Shown: positions 31 to 4,043 of the stretch, in pieces
Position numbering within the stretch: position 1 is the first letter of the stretch
Layout of the letters: the number at the start of each line of letters is the position of its first letter
Source of the DNA: a virus
Lineage: Duplodnaviria; Heunggongvirae; Uroviricota; Caudoviricetes
Direction: 5' to 3' (one strand)
Length of the DNA stretch: 4,534 bases
Virus record (IMG/VR): IMGVR_UViG_2778261058_000008
Location: 1-4,534 of that record
The notes under the pieces: model-generated
What the model saw: the letters and a program-made list of their open reading frames with translations, nothing else
The model's database searches: none
Told to the model about the DNA's origin: nothing
Translations under genes and position numbers: made by a program

Positions 31-43
31 TGCTGCGGGTGCT

Positions 44-60
44 TGAGGCTATCTGCCTCA
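44..60 (+). promoter_or_regulatory. 5' stem-loop of the hok mRNA (tac-like element)
   Basis: TGAGGC (44-49) pairs with GCCTCA (55-60) around a 5-nt loop. The surrounding GCTTGAGGCTATCTGCCTCA closely matches the 5' end of the plasmid R1 hok mRNA as I recall it (GCUUGAGGCUUUCUGCCUCA). Confidence 0.4.
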
Positions 61-94
61 GGCATGAACACCAAAAGGCAGATAGAGAAAAGCC

Positions 95-173
95 CCAGTT
101 AACATTACGCGTCCTGCAAGACGCTTAACATTAATCTGAGGCCCAATCTATGTCTCACAAATGTAGGTTAGCC
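95..173 (-). ncRNA. Candidate Sok-like antisense RNA (type I antitoxin); boundaries approximate
   Basis: Placed by analogy to hok/sok: antisense to the mok-like initiation region. Minus strand has weak promoter candidates (TTGCCT-17-TAACCT, or a TAAGAG -10 that is conserved with my recollection of R1) and a hairpin GCGTC-loop-GACGC (complement of 109-124) followed by a U-rich stretch. Start and end cannot be fixed from sequence alone. Confidence 0.3.
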
Positions 174-362
174 TCTTACGTGCCGAAAGGCAAGGAGAAG
201 CAGGCTATGAAGCAGCAAAAGGCGATGTTAATCGCCCTGATCGTCATCTGTTTAACCGTCATAGTGACGGCACTGGTAACGAGGAAAGACCTCTGCGAGG
301 TACGAATCCGAACCGGCCAGACGGAGGTCGCTGTCTTCGTAGACTACGAATCTAGAGAGTAA
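150..362 (+). CDS. mok-equivalent reading frame, here in frame with hok (70 codons, would give an N-terminally extended Hok)
   Basis: ATG at 150 with GAGG (138-141) 8 nt upstream. Flanking CTATGTCT and AGCCTCTTAC match the mok start region of R1 as I recall it. In R1 mok is offset +1 from hok; here the mok-ATG to hok-ATG distance is 57 nt, so the frames coincide. Confidence 0.3.
   Translation: MSHKCRLASYVPKGKEKQAMKQQKAMLIALIVICLTVIVTALVTRKDLCEVRIRTGQTEVAVFVDYESRE
207..362 (+). CDS. hokD: Hok/Gef-family type I toxin, 51 aa (small membrane peptide)
   Basis: Translation MKQQKAMLIALIVICLTVIVTALVTRKDLCEVRIRTGQTEVAVFVDYESRE: single hydrophobic helix, conserved LTRK..LCE.R motif of Hok proteins, near-identical over most of its length to HokD/RelF of E. 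coli K-12 as I recall it. SD AAGGAG (192-197) 9 nt before the ATG. Gene symbol is by similarity and position, not verified. Confidence 0.85.
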   Translation: MKQQKAMLIALIVICLTVIVTALVTRKDLCEVRIRTGQTEVAVFVDYESRE

Positions 363-453: not shown

Positions 454-528
454 GTTTTACGTATTCTGGTTTACAATCCACAGGCCAGCCTGAACAACTG
501 GCACCTGCTGCGCCAGCAGAGAAAACAG

Positions 529-801
529 ATGGCGCACAATACCAAATTACACAATTCTGATACCGTTCGTGCCAGCAGGCACGGGCGGCGCTCTCACGCA
601 TTCAAATATGACTGGTATCAGCACGATCCCTGCACTGAAGAACAGGCCGAATGGCTGATTCAGAACTACCGCAGACGTGGGTATGAGTTTAAGAAAGCCC
701 TCAACCTCGATTATCGTCACTGGATAATCTACGTCAGACTCCCTTATTCCGAACGCCCACCGCGTCCGTCCCGCACATTCCAGCAACGCATCTGGAGGTA
801 A
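529..801 (+). CDS. Hypothetical small phage protein, 90 aa, at the position Rem occupies in Qin
   Basis: ATG at 529 (weak SD GAGAAA); stop TAA 799-801 lies 1 nt before the GTG of the next gene, so the two look coupled. The longer track ORF from 403 would start inside the hok terminator and is not favoured. No recognisable motif; function unknown. Confidence 0.5.
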   Translation: MAHNTKLHNSDTVRASRHGRRSHAFKYDWYQHDPCTEEQAEWLIQNYRRRGYEFKKALNLDYRHWIIYVRLPYSERPPRPSRTFQQRIWR

Positions 802-802
802 C

Positions 803-1852
803 GTGCGGGTATTGCTTCGACCTGTTCCGGTACCGGAACTCGGGCTGGTGGTCCTTAAGCCTGGTCGTGAATCCATGCAGGTATTTCATAACCCTCGAGT
901 GCTGGTGGAACCGGAACCGAAAAGCATGCGCGGTCTGCCGTCCGGAGTCGTTCCTGCCATTCGCCAGCCGCTGGCGGAAGACAAAACATTGCTGCCGTTT
1001 TTCAGTAACGAACGGGTGATTCGTGCTGCTGGCGGCGCTGGTGCACTTTCTGACTGGCTGTTGCGTCATGTCAAATCCTGCCAGTGGCCTCATGGCGACT
1101 ATCACCACAGCGAAACCGTCATACATCGTTACGGTACCGGCGCGATGGTGTTGTGCTGGCACTGCGACAACCAGCTGCGTGACCAGACTTCCGAATCACT
1201 CGGGCAACTTGCTCATCAAAACCTGTCAGCATGGATGACTGACGTCATCCGTCACGCAATGAATGGCACACAGGAGCGGGAATTATCGCTGGCTGAATTA
1301 TCCTGGTGGGCGGTCTGCAATCAGGTAGCGGACGCATTACCGGAGGCAGTATTACGTCGTTCGCTGGGATTGCGTGCGGAAAAAATCCGCTCAATGTACC
1401 GTGAAAGCGACATCGTACCGGGAGAGCAGACCGCCACCAGCATACTGAAGCAGCGCACAAAAAATCTTGCGCCGTTGCCTCACGTCCACCAGCAACAGAA
1501 CGCACCACAGGAAAAGACGGTGGTCAGCATTGCCGTAGATCCGGAGTCTCCGGAATCTTTCATGAAGCGACCTAAACGTCGCCGTTGGGTAAATGAGAAA
1601 TACACGCGCTGGGTGAAGACACAGCCGTGTGCGTGTTGTGGCAAGCCAGCCGACGATCCCCATCACCTGATTGGTCATGGTCAGGGAGGGATGGGAACAA
1701 AAGCCCACGATATTTTCACGCTACCGCTGTGCCGGGAACATCACAACGAGCTTCATGCGGATCCGCTGGCGTTCGAAGAAAAGCATGGTTCCCAGGTTGA
1801 TTTAATTTTTCGTTTTCTTGATCACGCCTTTGCAACTGGCGTGCTTGGGTAA
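803..1852 (+). CDS. ydfU: DUF968-family phage protein, 349 aa, with a C-terminal Cys/His-rich nuclease-like motif
   Basis: GTG start at 803 preceded by GGAGG (794-798). Same length and gene position as YdfU of Qin in my recollection. C-terminus reads CACCGKPADDPHHLIGHG...LPLCREHHNELH (about 1630-1760), resembling a zinc-binding HNH-like signature. Confidence 0.8.
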   Translation: MRVLLRPVPVPELGLVVLKPGRESMQVFHNPRVLVEPEPKSMRGLPSGVVPAIRQPLAEDKTLLPFFSNERVIRAAGGAGALSDWLLRHVKSCQWPHGDYHHSETVIHRYGTGAMVLCWHCDNQLRDQTSESLGQLAHQNLSAWMTDVIRHAMNGTQERELSLAELSWWAVCNQVADALPEAVLRRSLGLRAEKIRSMYRESDIVPGEQTATSILKQRTKNLAPLPHVHQQQNAPQEKTVVSIAVDPESPESFMKRPKRRRWVNEKYTRWVKTQPCACCGKPADDPHHLIGHGQGGMGTKAHDIFTLPLCREHHNELHADPLAFEEKHGSQVDLIFRFLDHAFATGVLG

Positions 1853-1864
1853 AAGAGGTGACTG

Positions 1865-2224
1865 ATGCTCATAGATTTGGTTTTACCTTACCCGCCGACG
1901 GTGAACACTTACTGGCGACGCCGTGGCAGCACATATTTTATCTCGGAGGAGGGAAAGCGTTATCGTCGGGCTGTGGCGCTTATTGTTCGCCAGCAGCGGC
2001 TGAAATTAAGCCTGTCCGGAAGGCTGGCGATAAAGGTGATTGCAGAGCCACCGGATAAGCGTCGTCGCGACCTGGACAATATCCTGAAAGCACCACTGGA
2101 TGCGTTGACGCATGCGGGGTTGCTTATCGACGACGAGCAGTTTGATGAAATCAATATTGTGCGCGGTCAGGTCGTTCCTGGTGGTCGGCTGGGGATAAAA
2201 ATCACAGAGCTGGAGTGCGCATGA
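1865..2224 (+). CDS. rusA: RusA-family Holliday junction resolvase, 119 aa
   Basis: SD GAGGTG (1855-1860) then ATG 1865. Translation carries the RusA core PDKRRRDLDN...LIDDEQ; the three Asp at 69, 71 and 90 line up with the catalytic D70/D72/D91 of E. coli RusA. Confidence 0.9.
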   Translation: MLIDLVLPYPPTVNTYWRRRGSTYFISEEGKRYRRAVALIVRQQRLKLSLSGRLAIKVIAEPPDKRRRDLDNILKAPLDALTHAGLLIDDEQFDEINIVRGQVVPGGRLGIKITELECA

Positions 2225-2910
2225 ATAACCAGTATTTACAGTTTGTTCGTGAGCAGCTCATTATCGCCACCGCCGATTTGAGTGGGGCAACAAAAGGTCA
2301 GCTTGAAGCCTGGCAGGAGAATGCCATGTTCGATACAGGGCGTTACAGGCGTAAAAAAATCCGGTACCGCGATGAAGTGACCGGAAAAATGATCACGCGG
2401 GATAATCCACCAATCCCGGGGAAACAATCGCTGGCGAAGGGGACGTCAATTCCTCTGGTAAGTCAGGTTGAGTTTTCGACATCATCATGGCGACGGGCAG
2501 TTCTGTCTCTTGAAGAACATCATAAAACCTGGTTGTTGTGGTGTTACAGCGGGAGTATTTGCTGGGAGTATCAGGTCACCATAACCCGCTGGGCATGGGA
2601 AGAGTTTAAGGCTCATTCTGGCAACAGGAAAATTGCAGAGAAAACACGGGAGCGCCTGAAAAAATTAATCTGGCTGGCGGCACAGGATGTGAAGAGTGAG
2701 CTAGCTGGGCGTGAAACTTATGAATATCAGGAACTGGCATTACTGGCGGGAGTAACAACAAAAAACTGGTCCAAAACATTTACTGGTCACTGGGTTGCAA
2801 TGAAACACATTTTCCACCGGCTGGATAGTGAGGCTTTATTGTTTGTGATGAGAACACGCTCAGAACAAAAGACGGCATTTTCAAAGCAAAGTGTTGCAAA
2901 AGTAGATTAA
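2221..2910 (+). CDS. Late-gene antiterminator Q-like protein (Q82/Qin-type), 229 aa
   Basis: ATG 2221 overlaps the rusA stop (ATGA at 2221-2224) with GGAG 5 nt upstream; an in-frame GTG at 2215 is an alternative start. Gene lies directly after rusA, and its 3' end overlaps a promoter that is followed about 70 nt later by a terminator, the geometry of Q / PR' / tR'. Family call rests on context and general resemblance, not a search. Confidence 0.6.
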   Translation: MNNQYLQFVREQLIIATADLSGATKGQLEAWQENAMFDTGRYRRKKIRYRDEVTGKMITRDNPPIPGKQSLAKGTSIPLVSQVEFSTSSWRRAVLSLEEHHKTWLLWCYSGSICWEYQVTITRWAWEEFKAHSGNRKIAEKTRERLKKLIWLAAQDVKSELAGRETYEYQELALLAGVTTKNWSKTFTGHWVAMKHIFHRLDSEALLFVMRTRSEQKTAFSKQSVAKVD

Positions 2911-2922
2911 AAGGCATATATT
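2894..2922 (+). promoter_or_regulatory. PR'-like late promoter overlapping the 3' end of the Q-like gene
   Basis: -35 TTGCAA (2894-2899), 17-bp spacer, -10 TATATT (2917-2922); predicted start near 2929-2930. Confidence 0.45.
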
Positions 2923-2928
2923 TCGTGC

Positions 2929-2999
2929 AAATCTGATATTTTGCCGATTTTGTACTCGATGGCAAAGTAAGCAAATCCCGCCGCCGAGCGGGTTTTTTT
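2929..2999 (+). ncRNA. Short terminated late-promoter transcript, about 70 nt (analogous to lambda 6S RNA / StxS)
   Basis: Runs from the predicted PR'-like start to the T-tract of the tR'-like terminator; no ORF with an SD inside. Confidence 0.3.
2977..2999 (+). terminator. tR'-like intrinsic terminator
   Basis: Stem CCCGC (2977-2981) / GCGGG (2988-2992), 6-nt loop, seven T (2993-2999). Confidence 0.75.
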
Positions 3000-3014
3000 G
3001 TTGGCTTAACAGGT

Positions 3015-3020
3015 TATAAT
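3015..3020 (+). promoter_or_regulatory. Consensus -10 hexamer TATAAT; possible moron promoter for the MazF-like gene
   Basis: Perfect TATAAT 84 nt upstream of the ATG at 3104, but only a T-rich, poor -35 that overlaps the terminator T-tract. Confidence 0.3.
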
Positions 3021-3103
3021 GTATAGTGCGAAACTGCCTGTTCAGCAGAATCATTTTGTTTGTAGTGGAGTTCACAAGTCGTCATTATCAGGCAAAGAGA
3101 TTT

Positions 3104-3505
3104 ATGGTATTAAAGTATCAGCCGTCTGTTCGTTCTGTTTTAATGTGTGATTTTCGGGGAATGGTTGTTCCGGAAATAGTCAAGGTCAGGCCAGTGGTGG
3201 TCGTGTCCAGAAACAGGCACAACAATCAATTGGTAACAGTGGTACCAATAAGCACTACTGAACCGCTCCCTCGCAGAGATTGCCATCATGAGTTATCAGA
3301 AAACCCCATACCTGGTAATGAGCATATTACTTGCTGGGTAAAATGTGACATGTTGATGACGGTTTCATTGAGCCGACTGGATCGCATAAAAACCAGAACC
3401 TGGGAGGGACGAAATTATATTGTTCCTATGATTGCGGAAGATGAGTTTGAGAATATTAAACGGGCGGTATTGCACGGGATAGGGATGGCTTATCTGTATC
3501 GATAA
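3104..3505 (+). CDS. MazF/PemK/Kid-fold (CcdB/MazF superfamily) toxin-like protein, 133 aa, with no adjacent antitoxin ORF
   Basis: ATG 3104 with SD AAAGAGA (3094-3100). Translation SVLMCDFRGMVVPEIVKVRPVVVVSRNRHNNQLVTVVPISTTEP matches the MazF pattern (IWVDFDP...HRPAVVLS...CVPCTT) with the same 11-residue spacing between DF and RP; C-terminal region also aligns loosely. Could alternatively belong to an uncharacterised phage late-region family such as the YbcV/YdfO (DUF1398) type; I cannot tell them apart without a search. Confidence 0.6.
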   Translation: MVLKYQPSVRSVLMCDFRGMVVPEIVKVRPVVVVSRNRHNNQLVTVVPISTTEPLPRRDCHHELSENPIPGNEHITCWVKCDMLMTVSLSRLDRIKTRTWEGRNYIVPMIAEDEFENIKRAVLHGIGMAYLYR

Positions 3506-3529
3506 TCGAAAACGATTATCGAATTCGAT
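3499..3529. repeat. Palindrome cluster overlapping the stop codon of the MazF-like gene
   Basis: Perfect 10-bp inverted repeat TCGATAATCG (3499-3508) / CGATTATCGA (3513-3522) with an AAAA spacer, overlapping a 12-bp perfect palindrome ATCGAATTCGAT (3518-3529). Stop codon TAA is at 3503-3505. Confidence 0.7.
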
Positions 3530-3540
3530 ATGAATTTATA

Positions 3541-3569
3541 TTGACACACATAGTGTGTTGGCTGATACT
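3541..3569 (+). promoter_or_regulatory. Strong sigma70 promoter candidate with a palindrome in the spacer
   Basis: Consensus -35 TTGACA (3541-3546), 17-bp spacer, -10 GATACT (3564-3569), AT-rich tract upstream (3530-3540). Spacer holds ACACA-TAG-TGTGT (3546-3558), which looks like an operator. Confidence 0.5.
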
Positions 3570-3575
3570 GTCGCT

Positions 3576-3690
3576 GTACCCTGATGGGACTTGTGAGACT
3601 TCCGAACAGGAAGCCAGGAGTAGCGATGAGGTGATGACAAGCCTGCTGCCCCTGTGTAAAAGGCACCTTAATGGTGCCTTTGTCGTTTTT
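3576..3690 (+). ncRNA. Candidate small RNA, about 115 nt (about 148 nt if it reads to the second terminator at 3723)
   Basis: Defined by the promoter at 3541-3569 and the hairpin plus T-tract at 3659-3690. Only trivial ORFs inside: a 2-codon ORF after AGGAG (3616-3620) and a 25-codon frame from ATG 3634 that runs through the terminator stem and has no properly spaced SD. Confidence 0.3.
3659..3690 (+). terminator. Intrinsic terminator candidate
   Basis: Stem AAGGCACC / GGTGCCTT around loop TTAAT, then GTCG and five T (3686-3690). Confidence 0.5.
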
Positions 3691-3700
3691 ATCAAAAGAT

Positions 3701-3723
3701 CCCGCCACTGAGCGGGTTTTTTT
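3701..3723 (+). terminator. Intrinsic terminator; near-identical second copy of the tR'-like terminator
   Basis: Stem CCCGC (3701-3705) / GCGGG (3712-3716), 6-nt loop, seven T (3717-3723). ATCCCGCC...GAGCGGGTTTTTTTGT is shared with 2974-3002; only two loop bases differ. Confidence 0.75.
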
Positions 3724-3845
3724 GTGTCCTAAAAACGGCACAGGACGTTAAACGCGCTGGTGGTTGCGAATACGGGTCTTTCAGCTTGCTGGCTTTTTCG
3801 ACAAGAGTTATTGGTATGTCACGTTAACCAGAAAAGGAAAAAGAC

Positions 3846-4043
3846 ATGCTAAAACAGCAGGATATGACCGAAACTGCCAGAGTAGTGTTTAATGAATTGA
3901 GCGTCACCGAACCGGCGACCGTCGGGGAAATTGCGCAGAACACGTACCTTTCACGCGAACGCTGCCAGTTAATACTGACTCAGCTTGTTATGGCAGGTCT
4001 GGCAGATTATCAGTTCGGTTGTTACAGACGCCTTTCGCAGTGA
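3846..4043 (+). CDS. Small 65-aa protein, probable winged-helix/HTH DNA-binding protein
   Basis: SD AAGGA (3834-3838) 7 nt before ATG 3846. Segment ATVGEIAQNTYLSRERCQLILTQLVMAGL has helix-turn-helix character. Function is inferred, not established. Confidence 0.6.
   Translation: MLKQQDMTETARVVFNELSVTEPATVGEIAQNTYLSRERCQLILTQLVMAGLADYQFGCYRRLSQ

Follow-up and report, generated by a model that had tools for sequence, protein, structure and literature searches.

A probable late-gene control unit of the phage-82 type at the end of a Q gene in a lambdoid prophage

Does the end of the Q-like gene in this prophage DNA carry a promoter of its own, and is a short RNA released from it? The initial annotation of the window, that is, of the whole stretch of 4,534 nucleotides analysed here, read positions 2894-2999 as a PR'-to-tR' unit. 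It proposed a promoter overlapping the end of the gene and a terminator about 70 nt downstream, which together would yield an abundant short RNA in lysogens, likened there to lambda 6S RNA and StxS. We investigated this reading by profile searches, consensus scans, RNA folding and comparison with related loci.

The Q gene and the layout of the window

The window represents the nin/Q region of a lambdoid prophage and has the following features.

37-212, plus strand: hok/sok locus (Rfam sok, 121.7 bits; Pfam HOK_GEF on the ORF at 150-362)
523-801, plus strand: small ORF
803-1852, plus strand: DUF968 gene
1865-2224, plus strand: rusA
2221-2910, plus strand: Q antiterminator gene of the phage-82 family, 229 aa (Pfam PF06323, PHROG 304)
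2894-2999, plus strand: PR'-to-tR' unit
3002-3698, plus strand: moron cassette inserted at tR' (TATAAT at 3015-3020, MazF/PemK-like ORF, RNA-like region from about 3552)
3104-3505, plus strand: MazF/PemK-like ORF (Pfam PF02452, 52.7 bits; PHROG 15698 and 1936)
about 3550-3725, plus strand: RNA-like region with terminators
3699-3725, plus strand: second copy of the tR' hairpin and U tract (27-nt direct repeat, 93% identical; fold -12.0 kcal/mol)
3846-4043, plus strand: 65-aa ORF
4194 onward, plus strand: DNA methylase gene, start only

The Q protein matched PF06323 with 309 bits over profile positions 1-216 of 220, and its PHROG is described as 'anti-termination protein Q-like'. PF06323 is the Q82 family (PMC9388147). 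The protein and the gene share 77% amino-acid and 78% nucleotide identity, respectively, with Q of phage 82 (X92588), and the protein is assigned to the phage-82 (Q82) family. Ala226 and Lys227 were invariant in the Q alignment. The NCBIfam search gave nothing for Q or its neighbours, and the sequence search of the PDB with Q found no relevant structure. The nozzle mechanism of Q82 is in doubt (PMC9388147); the family-wide alignment described below defines the invariant DNA positions for such structural questions.

Other Q genes were considered for comparison. The Q of Sakai Sp10 was rejected as a member of the same type, being 184 aa long versus the 229-aa type of the window. The Qin prophage of E. 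coli K-12 was rejected as a source of data: its Q (ydfT) is of the lambda family, PF03589, and an 82-type unit was not found downstream of ydfT. Thus, K-12 data are unusable for this question.

DNA like positions 2880-3005 was detected in 1809 of 5426 complete E. coli genomes, about one-third, and E. coli SE11 was 100% identical over this region. Strain TUM1881 was 98.9% identical over 2200-3800. The Q82-type units of O157:H7 show about 90% identity to the window, and complete O157:H7 genomes other than Sakai have three copies each. Among the 40 matches to 2880-3005 that were listed, the only annotation beneath the match was the Q gene. In most of the E. coli and phage relatives, the match to the window stops at about 3001, where the terminator ends. 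Therefore, a module boundary is placed there.

Promoter, pause element and terminator

The elements proposed within 2894-2999 are listed below.

2894-2899, plus strand: PR' -35 hexamer TTGCAA (consensus scan; within the Q codons Val-Ala-Lys)
2900-2916, plus strand: 17-bp spacer and putative Q-binding element (position by homology with the 82 Q-binding element)
2917-2922, plus strand: PR' -10 hexamer TATATT (consensus scan; the same as the PhiR47_2 hexamer)
2929-2931, plus strand: predicted transcription start AAA, +1 being A2929 (homology; 6 nt past the -10)
2929-2999, plus strand: predicted terminated leader RNA of about 71 nt (from the proposed start to the U tract)
2934-2945, plus strand: putative sigma-70-dependent pause element, with TG (+6, +7), -10-like TATTTT (+9 to +14) and GCC (+15 to +17), matching the description of 82 pR'
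2937-2969, plus strand: leader hairpin 1, with the core GCCG 2943-2946 / TGGC 2960-2963 extended by U-A pairs (minimum-free-energy fold)
2953-2954, plus strand: predicted pause site, +25 U / +26, with G at +24 (homology with 82 pR')
2964-2976, plus strand: A-rich single-stranded linker AAAGUAAGCAAAU (unpaired in the fold)
2977-2999, plus strand: intrinsic terminator tR', stem CCCGC/GCGGG, loop CGCCGA and U7 (consensus scan, fold)

The consensus scan detected TTGCAA-17-TATATT at 2894-2922 on the plus strand, with 9 of 12 consensus matches. The final Q codons, GTT GCA AAA GTA GAT TAA, contain the -35 hexamer, and the spacer includes the last two codons and the stop codon (2908-2910). Thus, the proposed promoter does overlap the end of the Q-like gene, with TTGCAA lying inside the ORF at 2221-2910. 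The same scan found the hairpin CCCGCCGCCGAGCGGG then TTTTTTTG on the plus strand at 2977-2992, with U7 at 2993-2999. This is the downstream intrinsic terminator expected of a Q82-type unit, and its distance agrees with the initial annotation, since the U tract ends about 71 nt from A2929. The hairpin folded at -8.4 to -9.1 kcal/mol. As the stem has only five G-C pairs, termination may be partial, and some Q-independent readthrough into the moron is possible.

Across the window, the consensus scan gave 8 promoter-like sites (4.6 +/- 2.0 in shuffles) and 10 terminator-like sites (4.9 +/- 2.0 in shuffles). The hexamer and hairpin matches alone are therefore not beyond chance, and the case rests on homology and conservation.

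The promoter of phage 82, pR', is much used in vitro. As its proxy we used PhiR47_2, because its Q shares 97% identity with that of phage 82 and the 3' end is the same. In the window and in PhiR47_2, the -35 and -10 hexamers and positions +1 to +17 (AAATCTGATATTTTGCC) were identical, as were 13 of the 17 spacer positions; the other four differed. By sequence, the window has a sigma-70 promoter with 82-type hexamers and a 17-bp spacer. The Q-binding element of 82 sits between the -35 and -10, within -31 to +30 (PMC4914094), and at this locus it would lie at 2900-2916. Wild-type 82 pR' begins with AAA (PMC5001585). The Rfam isrJ and isrK alignments begin at 2926/2927 of the window. From the homology, we infer promoter activity and A2929 as the exact start.

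In 82 pR', the -10-like pause element has an extended -10 and a GCC discriminator at +15-17; the natural base at +25 is U, and pausing occurs at +25/+26 (PMC5001585). A 1-nt insertion at +18 would bring a G into the pause position (PMC5001585), which places a G at +24. The corresponding bases are all present in the window: TG at 2934-2935, TATTTT at 2937-2942, GCC at 2943-2945, and G2952, T2953 and A2954 around the pause site. All published 82 pR' landmarks (PMC5001585, PMC4914094) map onto the window, those of the start and pause onto 2929-2953. By sequence, these features match a sigma-70-dependent pause element with its pause at +25 (U), and pausing at +25/+26 is predicted here. The initial annotation had expected the Q-binding and pause elements in 2900-2950. 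Placed by homology, both elements (2900-2916 and 2934-2945, respectively) would fall inside this range, whereas the predicted pause site at 2953/2954 is 3-4 nt beyond it.

To examine conservation, one genome per species was scanned with the Q82-family alignment, which gave 66 loci in many genera of Enterobacteriaceae, with Q proteins 51-93% identical. Of these 66, 65 have the promoter and pause block after the Q gene. The pause TG was 40 nt from the start of the -35 in 63 of 65 loci, and the Q stop codon starts at -21 in 59 of 63. Among 61 distinct relatives, TTGCAAAA at the -35 was nearly invariant (1.78 bits per position), and the -10 reached 1.56 bits per position. Positions +6 to +11 carried 1.77-2.0 bits each; +7 to +10 were invariant, and +11, +14 and +17 were nearly so. 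Position +25 had 1.4 bits. The upstream Q coding sequence had 1.28 bits per position, and the sequence after +18 had 0.58. A hairpin with a T run was present in 61 of 68 leaders. This conservation raises the element at 2894-2999 above chance.

The minus strand of 2894-2999 was also inspected. It has a promoter-like site at 2965-2938 (9 of 12) and a reverse hairpin; the consensus scan for a T run after this hairpin (ATTTGCTTAC) found none. Two overlapping 64-aa minus-strand ORFs in this region were without support.

Taken together, 2894-2999 is very probably the late-gene control unit of a phage-82-type lambdoid prophage. The PR'-to-tR' reading is thereby upheld by the Q82-family Q protein, the hexamers and +1 to +17 shared with PhiR47_2, the 82 landmarks and the conservation. 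In the proposed mechanism, transcription from PR' would be constitutive. Host sigma-70 RNA polymerase would start at A2929, using a promoter whose -35 is written into the last Q codons. Sigma-70 still bound to the polymerase would recognise the TG-extended -10-like element at +6 to +14, and the polymerase would pause at about +25/+26 (2953/2954). When Q is absent, the polymerase would escape the pause, terminate at the hairpin and U7 (2977-2999) and free the RNA of about 71 nt. When Q is bound to the spacer DNA at 2900-2916, the paused polymerase would be modified, and it would then continue past tR', the moron cassette and the second copy of the terminator to transcribe the late genes. Both Q binding and Q-dependent readthrough at this locus are predicted by homology.

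The unit is a new copy of a well-known device, by which a common class of prophage turns its late genes on or off. Marking it allows late promoters to be annotated correctly, morons under Q control to be predicted (here the MazF-like gene, elsewhere tRNAs), and the terminated leader to be tested in a targeted way as a regulatory RNA.

The region of phage 82, via PhiR47_2, resembles the window in the Q family, in the hexamers and +1 to +17, in the predicted pause at +25/+26, and in having the unit at the very end of Q with a terminator within about 70-80 nt. The differences are as follows. The discriminator is TCGTGC in one and TTATGT in the other. The leaders diverge past +17, at +18, +21 and throughout the 3' half. 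Phage 82 has a 10-bp GCCCGAGG-type stem, whereas the window has CCCGC/GCGGG with U7, and the RNAs are predicted at about 78 and 71 nt, respectively. Lysis genes follow in phage 82; in the window, a moron cassette is found instead. A short RNA for phage 82 is cited by Sy et al.

With lambda, the likeness is of function and not of homology: 6S RNA is also a PR'-tR' transcript, but the lambda Q family is PF03589 and not PF06323 (PMC9388147), the lambda pause is at +16/+17 and not at +25/+26 (PMC5001585), and 6S terminates at +193, giving about 194 nt versus about 71 nt for the window (PMC4914094).

The terminated leader RNA and IsrJ

The leader at 2929-2999 folded at -19.2 kcal/mol (z = -1.7), in the order of an unpaired 5' end, hairpin 1, the A-rich linker and the terminator. 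The nine pairs of hairpin 1 were assessed in 23 distinct leaders of the same sequence type as the window (type A, defined below). In these, 84% of the cells were paired, versus 24-52% when the partners were slid. Compensatory changes were found in only two of the nine pairs and mostly in one clade. The pairing gives modest support for selection at the RNA level. In 57 leaders, the 14 nt before the terminator stem were 54% A, versus a background of 26% +/- 13%. This linker fits the Hfq distal-face motif and, equally, ordinary terminator A-tracts. The long U tail after an A/U-rich single-stranded stretch, as in Hfq-dependent sRNAs, is present in the form of U7 and the linker. The recurrence of both features, hairpin 1 and the linker, in different leader types hints that the RNA may be selected beyond a by-product role.

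Predicted duplexes between the leader and downstream regions were set aside as long and imperfect, with accessibility left out of the calculation; one z of -3.4 among them is uninterpretable. The literature search with strings of the leader sequence found no paper. No entry of the EHEC Hfq-CRAC table corresponded to the leader type, but the table left out sites less than 100 bp from coding regions, so that this absence is uninformative. The Sakai loci EcOnc10/11/12 and EcOnc33 (PMC4104026 Table S2) were considered and rejected, as they lie after lysis genes or inside Sp6 and not at a Q gene. EcOnc33 had been chosen for this check because of its length of about 71 nt; EcOnc10-12 are HnrS.

Among the relatives, the predicted RNA ranged from 48 to 119 nt (median 76), mainly in a short group of 48-53 nt and a larger one of 68-96 nt. 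After about +12, the leaders form at least three sequence types. Type A, to which phage 82 and the window belong, has GCC(A/G)...(C/T)GGC. Type B has GTCGCC...GTCGAC. Type C has GCTGCC, followed directly by the terminator or by a GGCGGC arm. Type B and the long form of type C have a hairpin at the same place with another sequence and register, and the class of about 50 nt is without a hairpin there. The types combine freely with the C-terminal and spacer variants of Q. Such free recombination beyond about +12 is expected if the promoter and pause block is all that Q requires. It indicates that Q needs no particular leader body and that no single trans function is kept family-wide.

The type B leader is Rfam isrJ (RF01393). 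Of 20 scanned loci, 11 scored 41-93 bits, above the gathering score of 37 bits, with the isrJ match starting 19 nt after the Q match ends. In Salmonella Gifsy-1, IsrJ has been mapped as an RNA of 74 nt, and the Gifsy-1 isrJ itself scored 100 bits. Upstream of it, the final codons of a Q82-type gene (TTGCAAAACTGGATTAA) are followed by TATATT and then by AAATCTGATAT, and the 5' end of IsrJ maps to the position homologous to the start in the window. This arrangement identifies IsrJ as the leader RNA of a late unit of the Q82 type. Because homologous units are the IsrJ gene, such units do give a stable short RNA in vivo. By analogy, the short RNA that the initial annotation expected in lysogens is supported by these homologues. 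The IsrJ link thus offers an experimental precedent for the accumulation of such leader RNAs and suggests a simple origin for the IsrJ sRNA; recognising IsrJ as a Q82-type leader RNA is the most useful by-product of the analysis.

The window itself scored 21.3 bits on isrJ (E = 0.036, 2926-2997), below the gathering score. IsrJ shares with the window the promoter hexamers and geometry, the first 11 nt of the leader (AAAUCUGAUAU), and the order of the elements that follow (a hairpin near +13 to +36, then an A-rich linker, then the terminator), at 74 versus about 71 nt. The two are unrelated from +12 on, where IsrJ has a GUCGCC...GUCGAC hairpin and a GCCUCGCC terminator; in Gifsy-1, moreover, an immI-like cassette separates antQ from the unit.

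Against Rfam isrK (RF01394), the window scored 19.5 bits, below the gathering score of 50 bits. This weak match was rejected as homology, since the true IsrK overlaps Rfam c4-a1b1 and not a PR' unit. In Gifsy-1, the C4 antisense RNA and an antirepressor gene follow the true IsrK. The IsrK cassette there is of the P1-like immI kind, and its insertion separated antQ from the original PR' of that gene.

StxS (Sy et al. 2020) is likewise a short RNA from constitutive tR' termination at a Q-controlled lambdoid late promoter, and here too the likeness is of function and not of homology. Its final size of 74 nt is similar to the predicted size of about 71 nt. However, StxS arises by RNase E cleavage of a 258-nt precursor, whereas the primary transcript of the window is predicted to be about 71 nt already. 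Hfq binding and the targets rpoS and stx1B have been shown for StxS, whereas the RNA of the window is a prediction.

The downstream cassette and alternative explanations

The 27-nt direct repeats at 2975-3001 and 3699-3725 (spacing 724) bracket a 724-bp insertion in the alignment with three insert-free relatives (L003, L005 and L016). STEC2018-607 has a cassette of about 225 bp between two terminator copies, with TTATAAT and a structured region and without the MazF-like gene. In the window, about 500 bp with the MazF-like ORF interrupt this cassette after 3053. On this comparison, the STEC2018-607 form is taken as an intermediate state of the cassette. The cassette agrees with the 'moron site' that Tree et al. 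2014 described downstream of PR'. The region 3576-3725 folded at -58.6 kcal/mol (z = -5.4) and had no Rfam match. In the PADLOC search, the MazF-like protein had no match and the 65-aa ORF had only a weak one (E = 0.0033). The terminators at 3659-3681 (-16 kcal/mol) and 3699-3725 (-12 kcal/mol) could catch readthrough.

Several other explanations of 2894-2999 were weighed. The hairpin and U7 might simply end the early-right (Q) transcript, with no active promoter and with hexamers that reflect the coding constraint on the Q C-terminus. The -35 and part of the spacer are indeed coding sequence, the hexamers match at only 9 of 12 positions, and promoter-like sites are not enriched in the window. 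However, the non-coding -10, the TG-extended -10-like repeat and the GCC are conserved at least as well as the coding sequence and at a fixed spacing, the hexamers and +1 to +17 are those of the phage-82-like pR', and the 5' end of IsrJ lies at the homologous position. An absent promoter is therefore very improbable. Hardly more can be said for an action of the short RNA on its own long readthrough isoform, as reported for IsrK, by which translation of the MazF-like gene would be switched on. The layout of Q, short RNA, moron and second module copy parallels Gifsy-1, the weak 5-bp terminator could permit readthrough, and the whole-molecule duplex with 3000-3180 reached -39.6 kcal/mol. But 5% of the shuffles were at or below that value, so that the duplex prediction, which ignores accessibility, is not significant. 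In most relatives, the region downstream of the same leader lacks a moron or holds tRNA genes; the MazF-like gene entered an older cassette secondarily; and IsrK belongs to a c4/immI-like cassette and not to a PR' unit, which weakens the analogy.

A weightier alternative is that the RNA of about 71 nt is also a trans-acting, Hfq-associated sRNA, like StxS and, reportedly, IsrJ, and that it pairs with host or phage mRNAs via its single-stranded 5' end (AAAUCUGAUAUUUU) or the A-rich linker. The unpaired 5' end, small hairpin, A-rich linker and U7 terminator fit an Hfq-dependent sRNA, and hairpin 1 is kept across the type-A leaders. The homologous type-B leader is IsrJ, a stable 74-nt RNA whose Rfam title is Hfq-binding RNA, and StxS is a precedent for sRNAs derived from PR'. 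On the other side, the DNA-level pause function fully explains the 5' 17 nt, and A-rich tracts before terminators are common for non-Hfq reasons too. The 3' two-thirds of the leader comprise at least three unrelated, freely recombining types, which speaks against one conserved trans function, and the window stays below the isrJ threshold (21.3 versus 37 bits). We regard such an added activity as unlikely, though by no means negligible; by analogy with StxS or IsrJ, a trans-acting role is possible. As far as the evidence goes, the late-gene switch produces the short RNA mainly as a by-product, and the best-supported role of this RNA is cis-regulatory, in Q loading and antitermination.

A broader proposal, to which we give a low probability, is that the Q82-type leader RNAs belong to a single large family of prophage sRNAs, made constitutively and so far unrecognised, with IsrJ as one member and the 71-nt RNA as a second type. 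The shared 5' end would act as a common 'seed' on host mRNAs, and the exchangeable 3' part would tune chaperone binding or further targets. In the members of such a family, the 5' end AAAUCUGAUAU would be fixed by the DNA-level sigma-70 pause element, and the body of hairpin, A-rich linker and terminator would be shared.

Salmonella IsrJ and the Q82-type late unit

In Salmonella, the sRNA IsrJ (Rfam RF01393) is the leader RNA running from PR' to tR' in a Q82-type late unit, meaning a unit served by an antiterminator of the phage 82 Q family. The IsrJ-type units were located in the following related loci.

Gifsy-1 (L157, NC_010392), within 688-2310: IsrJ-type Q82 late unit
Q82-family loci L091, L098, L100, L105, L108, L120, L122, L132 and L133, ~2206-2285: IsrJ-type Q82 late unit

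In Gifsy-1, a P1-like immI cassette, made up of IsrK, a C4 antisense RNA, orf45 and the antirepressor gene anrP, lies between antQ and the original PR' of antQ. The last Q codons (AKLD and the stop codon) were left in front of IsrJ, beyond the immI cassette. IsrK overlaps Rfam c4-a1b1. In the literature examined on IsrJ and IsrK, the statement that IsrJ is the leader of a Q82 unit was not found.

Leader cassettes and the end of the Q gene

From +12 onward, the leader bodies (type A in phage 82 and the window, type B corresponding to Rfam isrJ, and type C) and the terminator hairpins of the Q82-family loci (L085-L150) form a few discrete cassettes. The bodies and hairpins mix freely with each other and with the C-terminal variants of Q. 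This free mixing implies that recombination is frequent within the conserved promoter and pause block.

In four loci (L085, L086, L087 and L139), derived from E. coli ECMA0423 and Shigella flexneri SFBU1023, the pause element carries a T-to-C change at +11 (GATACT), and the terminator stems are weakened to CCCGCC...GCGG or CCCTCC...GCGGG. These changes look like decay of the late unit in cryptic prophages. The promoter and pause block was absent only in L150 (Enterobacteriaceae bacterium B14), one of the 66 Q82-family loci, where the match to Q already stops at residue 217 and gives way to a different sequence.

In all Q82-family loci, the end of Q shows dual coding, as the -35 hexamer TTGCAA is embedded in the invariant Ala-Lys codons near the C-terminus of Q (2894-2910 in the window). 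Of 63 loci, 59 have a Q stop codon that starts at -21, and the three "conserved" positions of the spacer (-23, -21 and -19) correspond to the Asp/Asn codon and the stop codon. Therefore, the presumed Q-binding element is partly coding sequence.

Duplicated terminator and nested moron

The tR' hairpin with its U tract is present twice in the window, as two 27-nt copies that are 93% identical and 724 bp apart. These copies flank a nested moron.

2975-3001: tR' hairpin and U tract, first copy
3002-3698: moron cassette
3104-3505: MazF/PemK-like ORF (Pfam PF02452, 52.7 bits; PHROG 15698)
3699-3725: tR' hairpin and U tract, second copy

An older cassette of ~225 bp occurs alone in STEC2018-607 (L161, 1725-1965); in the window, it is interrupted after 3053 by ~500 bp with the MazF/PemK-like gene. 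The RefSeq protein has 133 aa in SE11 and C5 and 114 aa in TUM1881. Since the Pfam match begins upstream of the start of the shorter version, 3104 is the likelier start. No antitoxin ORF adjoins this ORF in the window. A perfect TATAAT lies 5' of it (3015-3020) without a good -35.

Many relatives carry tRNA genes shortly 3' of tR' (L002, 2407-2647; L099, L108, L114, L122 and L091), at the same moron site as the MazF cassette of the window. Their identities are Met/Lys/Arg in L002 and Ile in L003.

Predicted structured region 3541-3725 and the hok/sok locus

The promoter-like site in region 3541-3725 is strong (TTGACA-17-GATACT, matching 10 of 12 consensus positions) and composite, with the -35 from the MazF insert and the -10 from the older cassette. 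The sequence after this site folds far more strongly than its shuffles (-58.6 kcal/mol, z = -5.4) and terminates in two terminators; it had no match in Rfam. Only 37 of the 5426 E. coli genomes carry this region, a candidate structured sRNA that could serve the solitary MazF-like toxin as an RNA partner.

The window also contains a complete type I toxin-antitoxin locus, with a strong terminator 3' of it.

37-362: hok/sok locus, HokD-like (Rfam sok, 121.7 bits; Pfam HOK_GEF, 79.8 bits)
432-449: terminator
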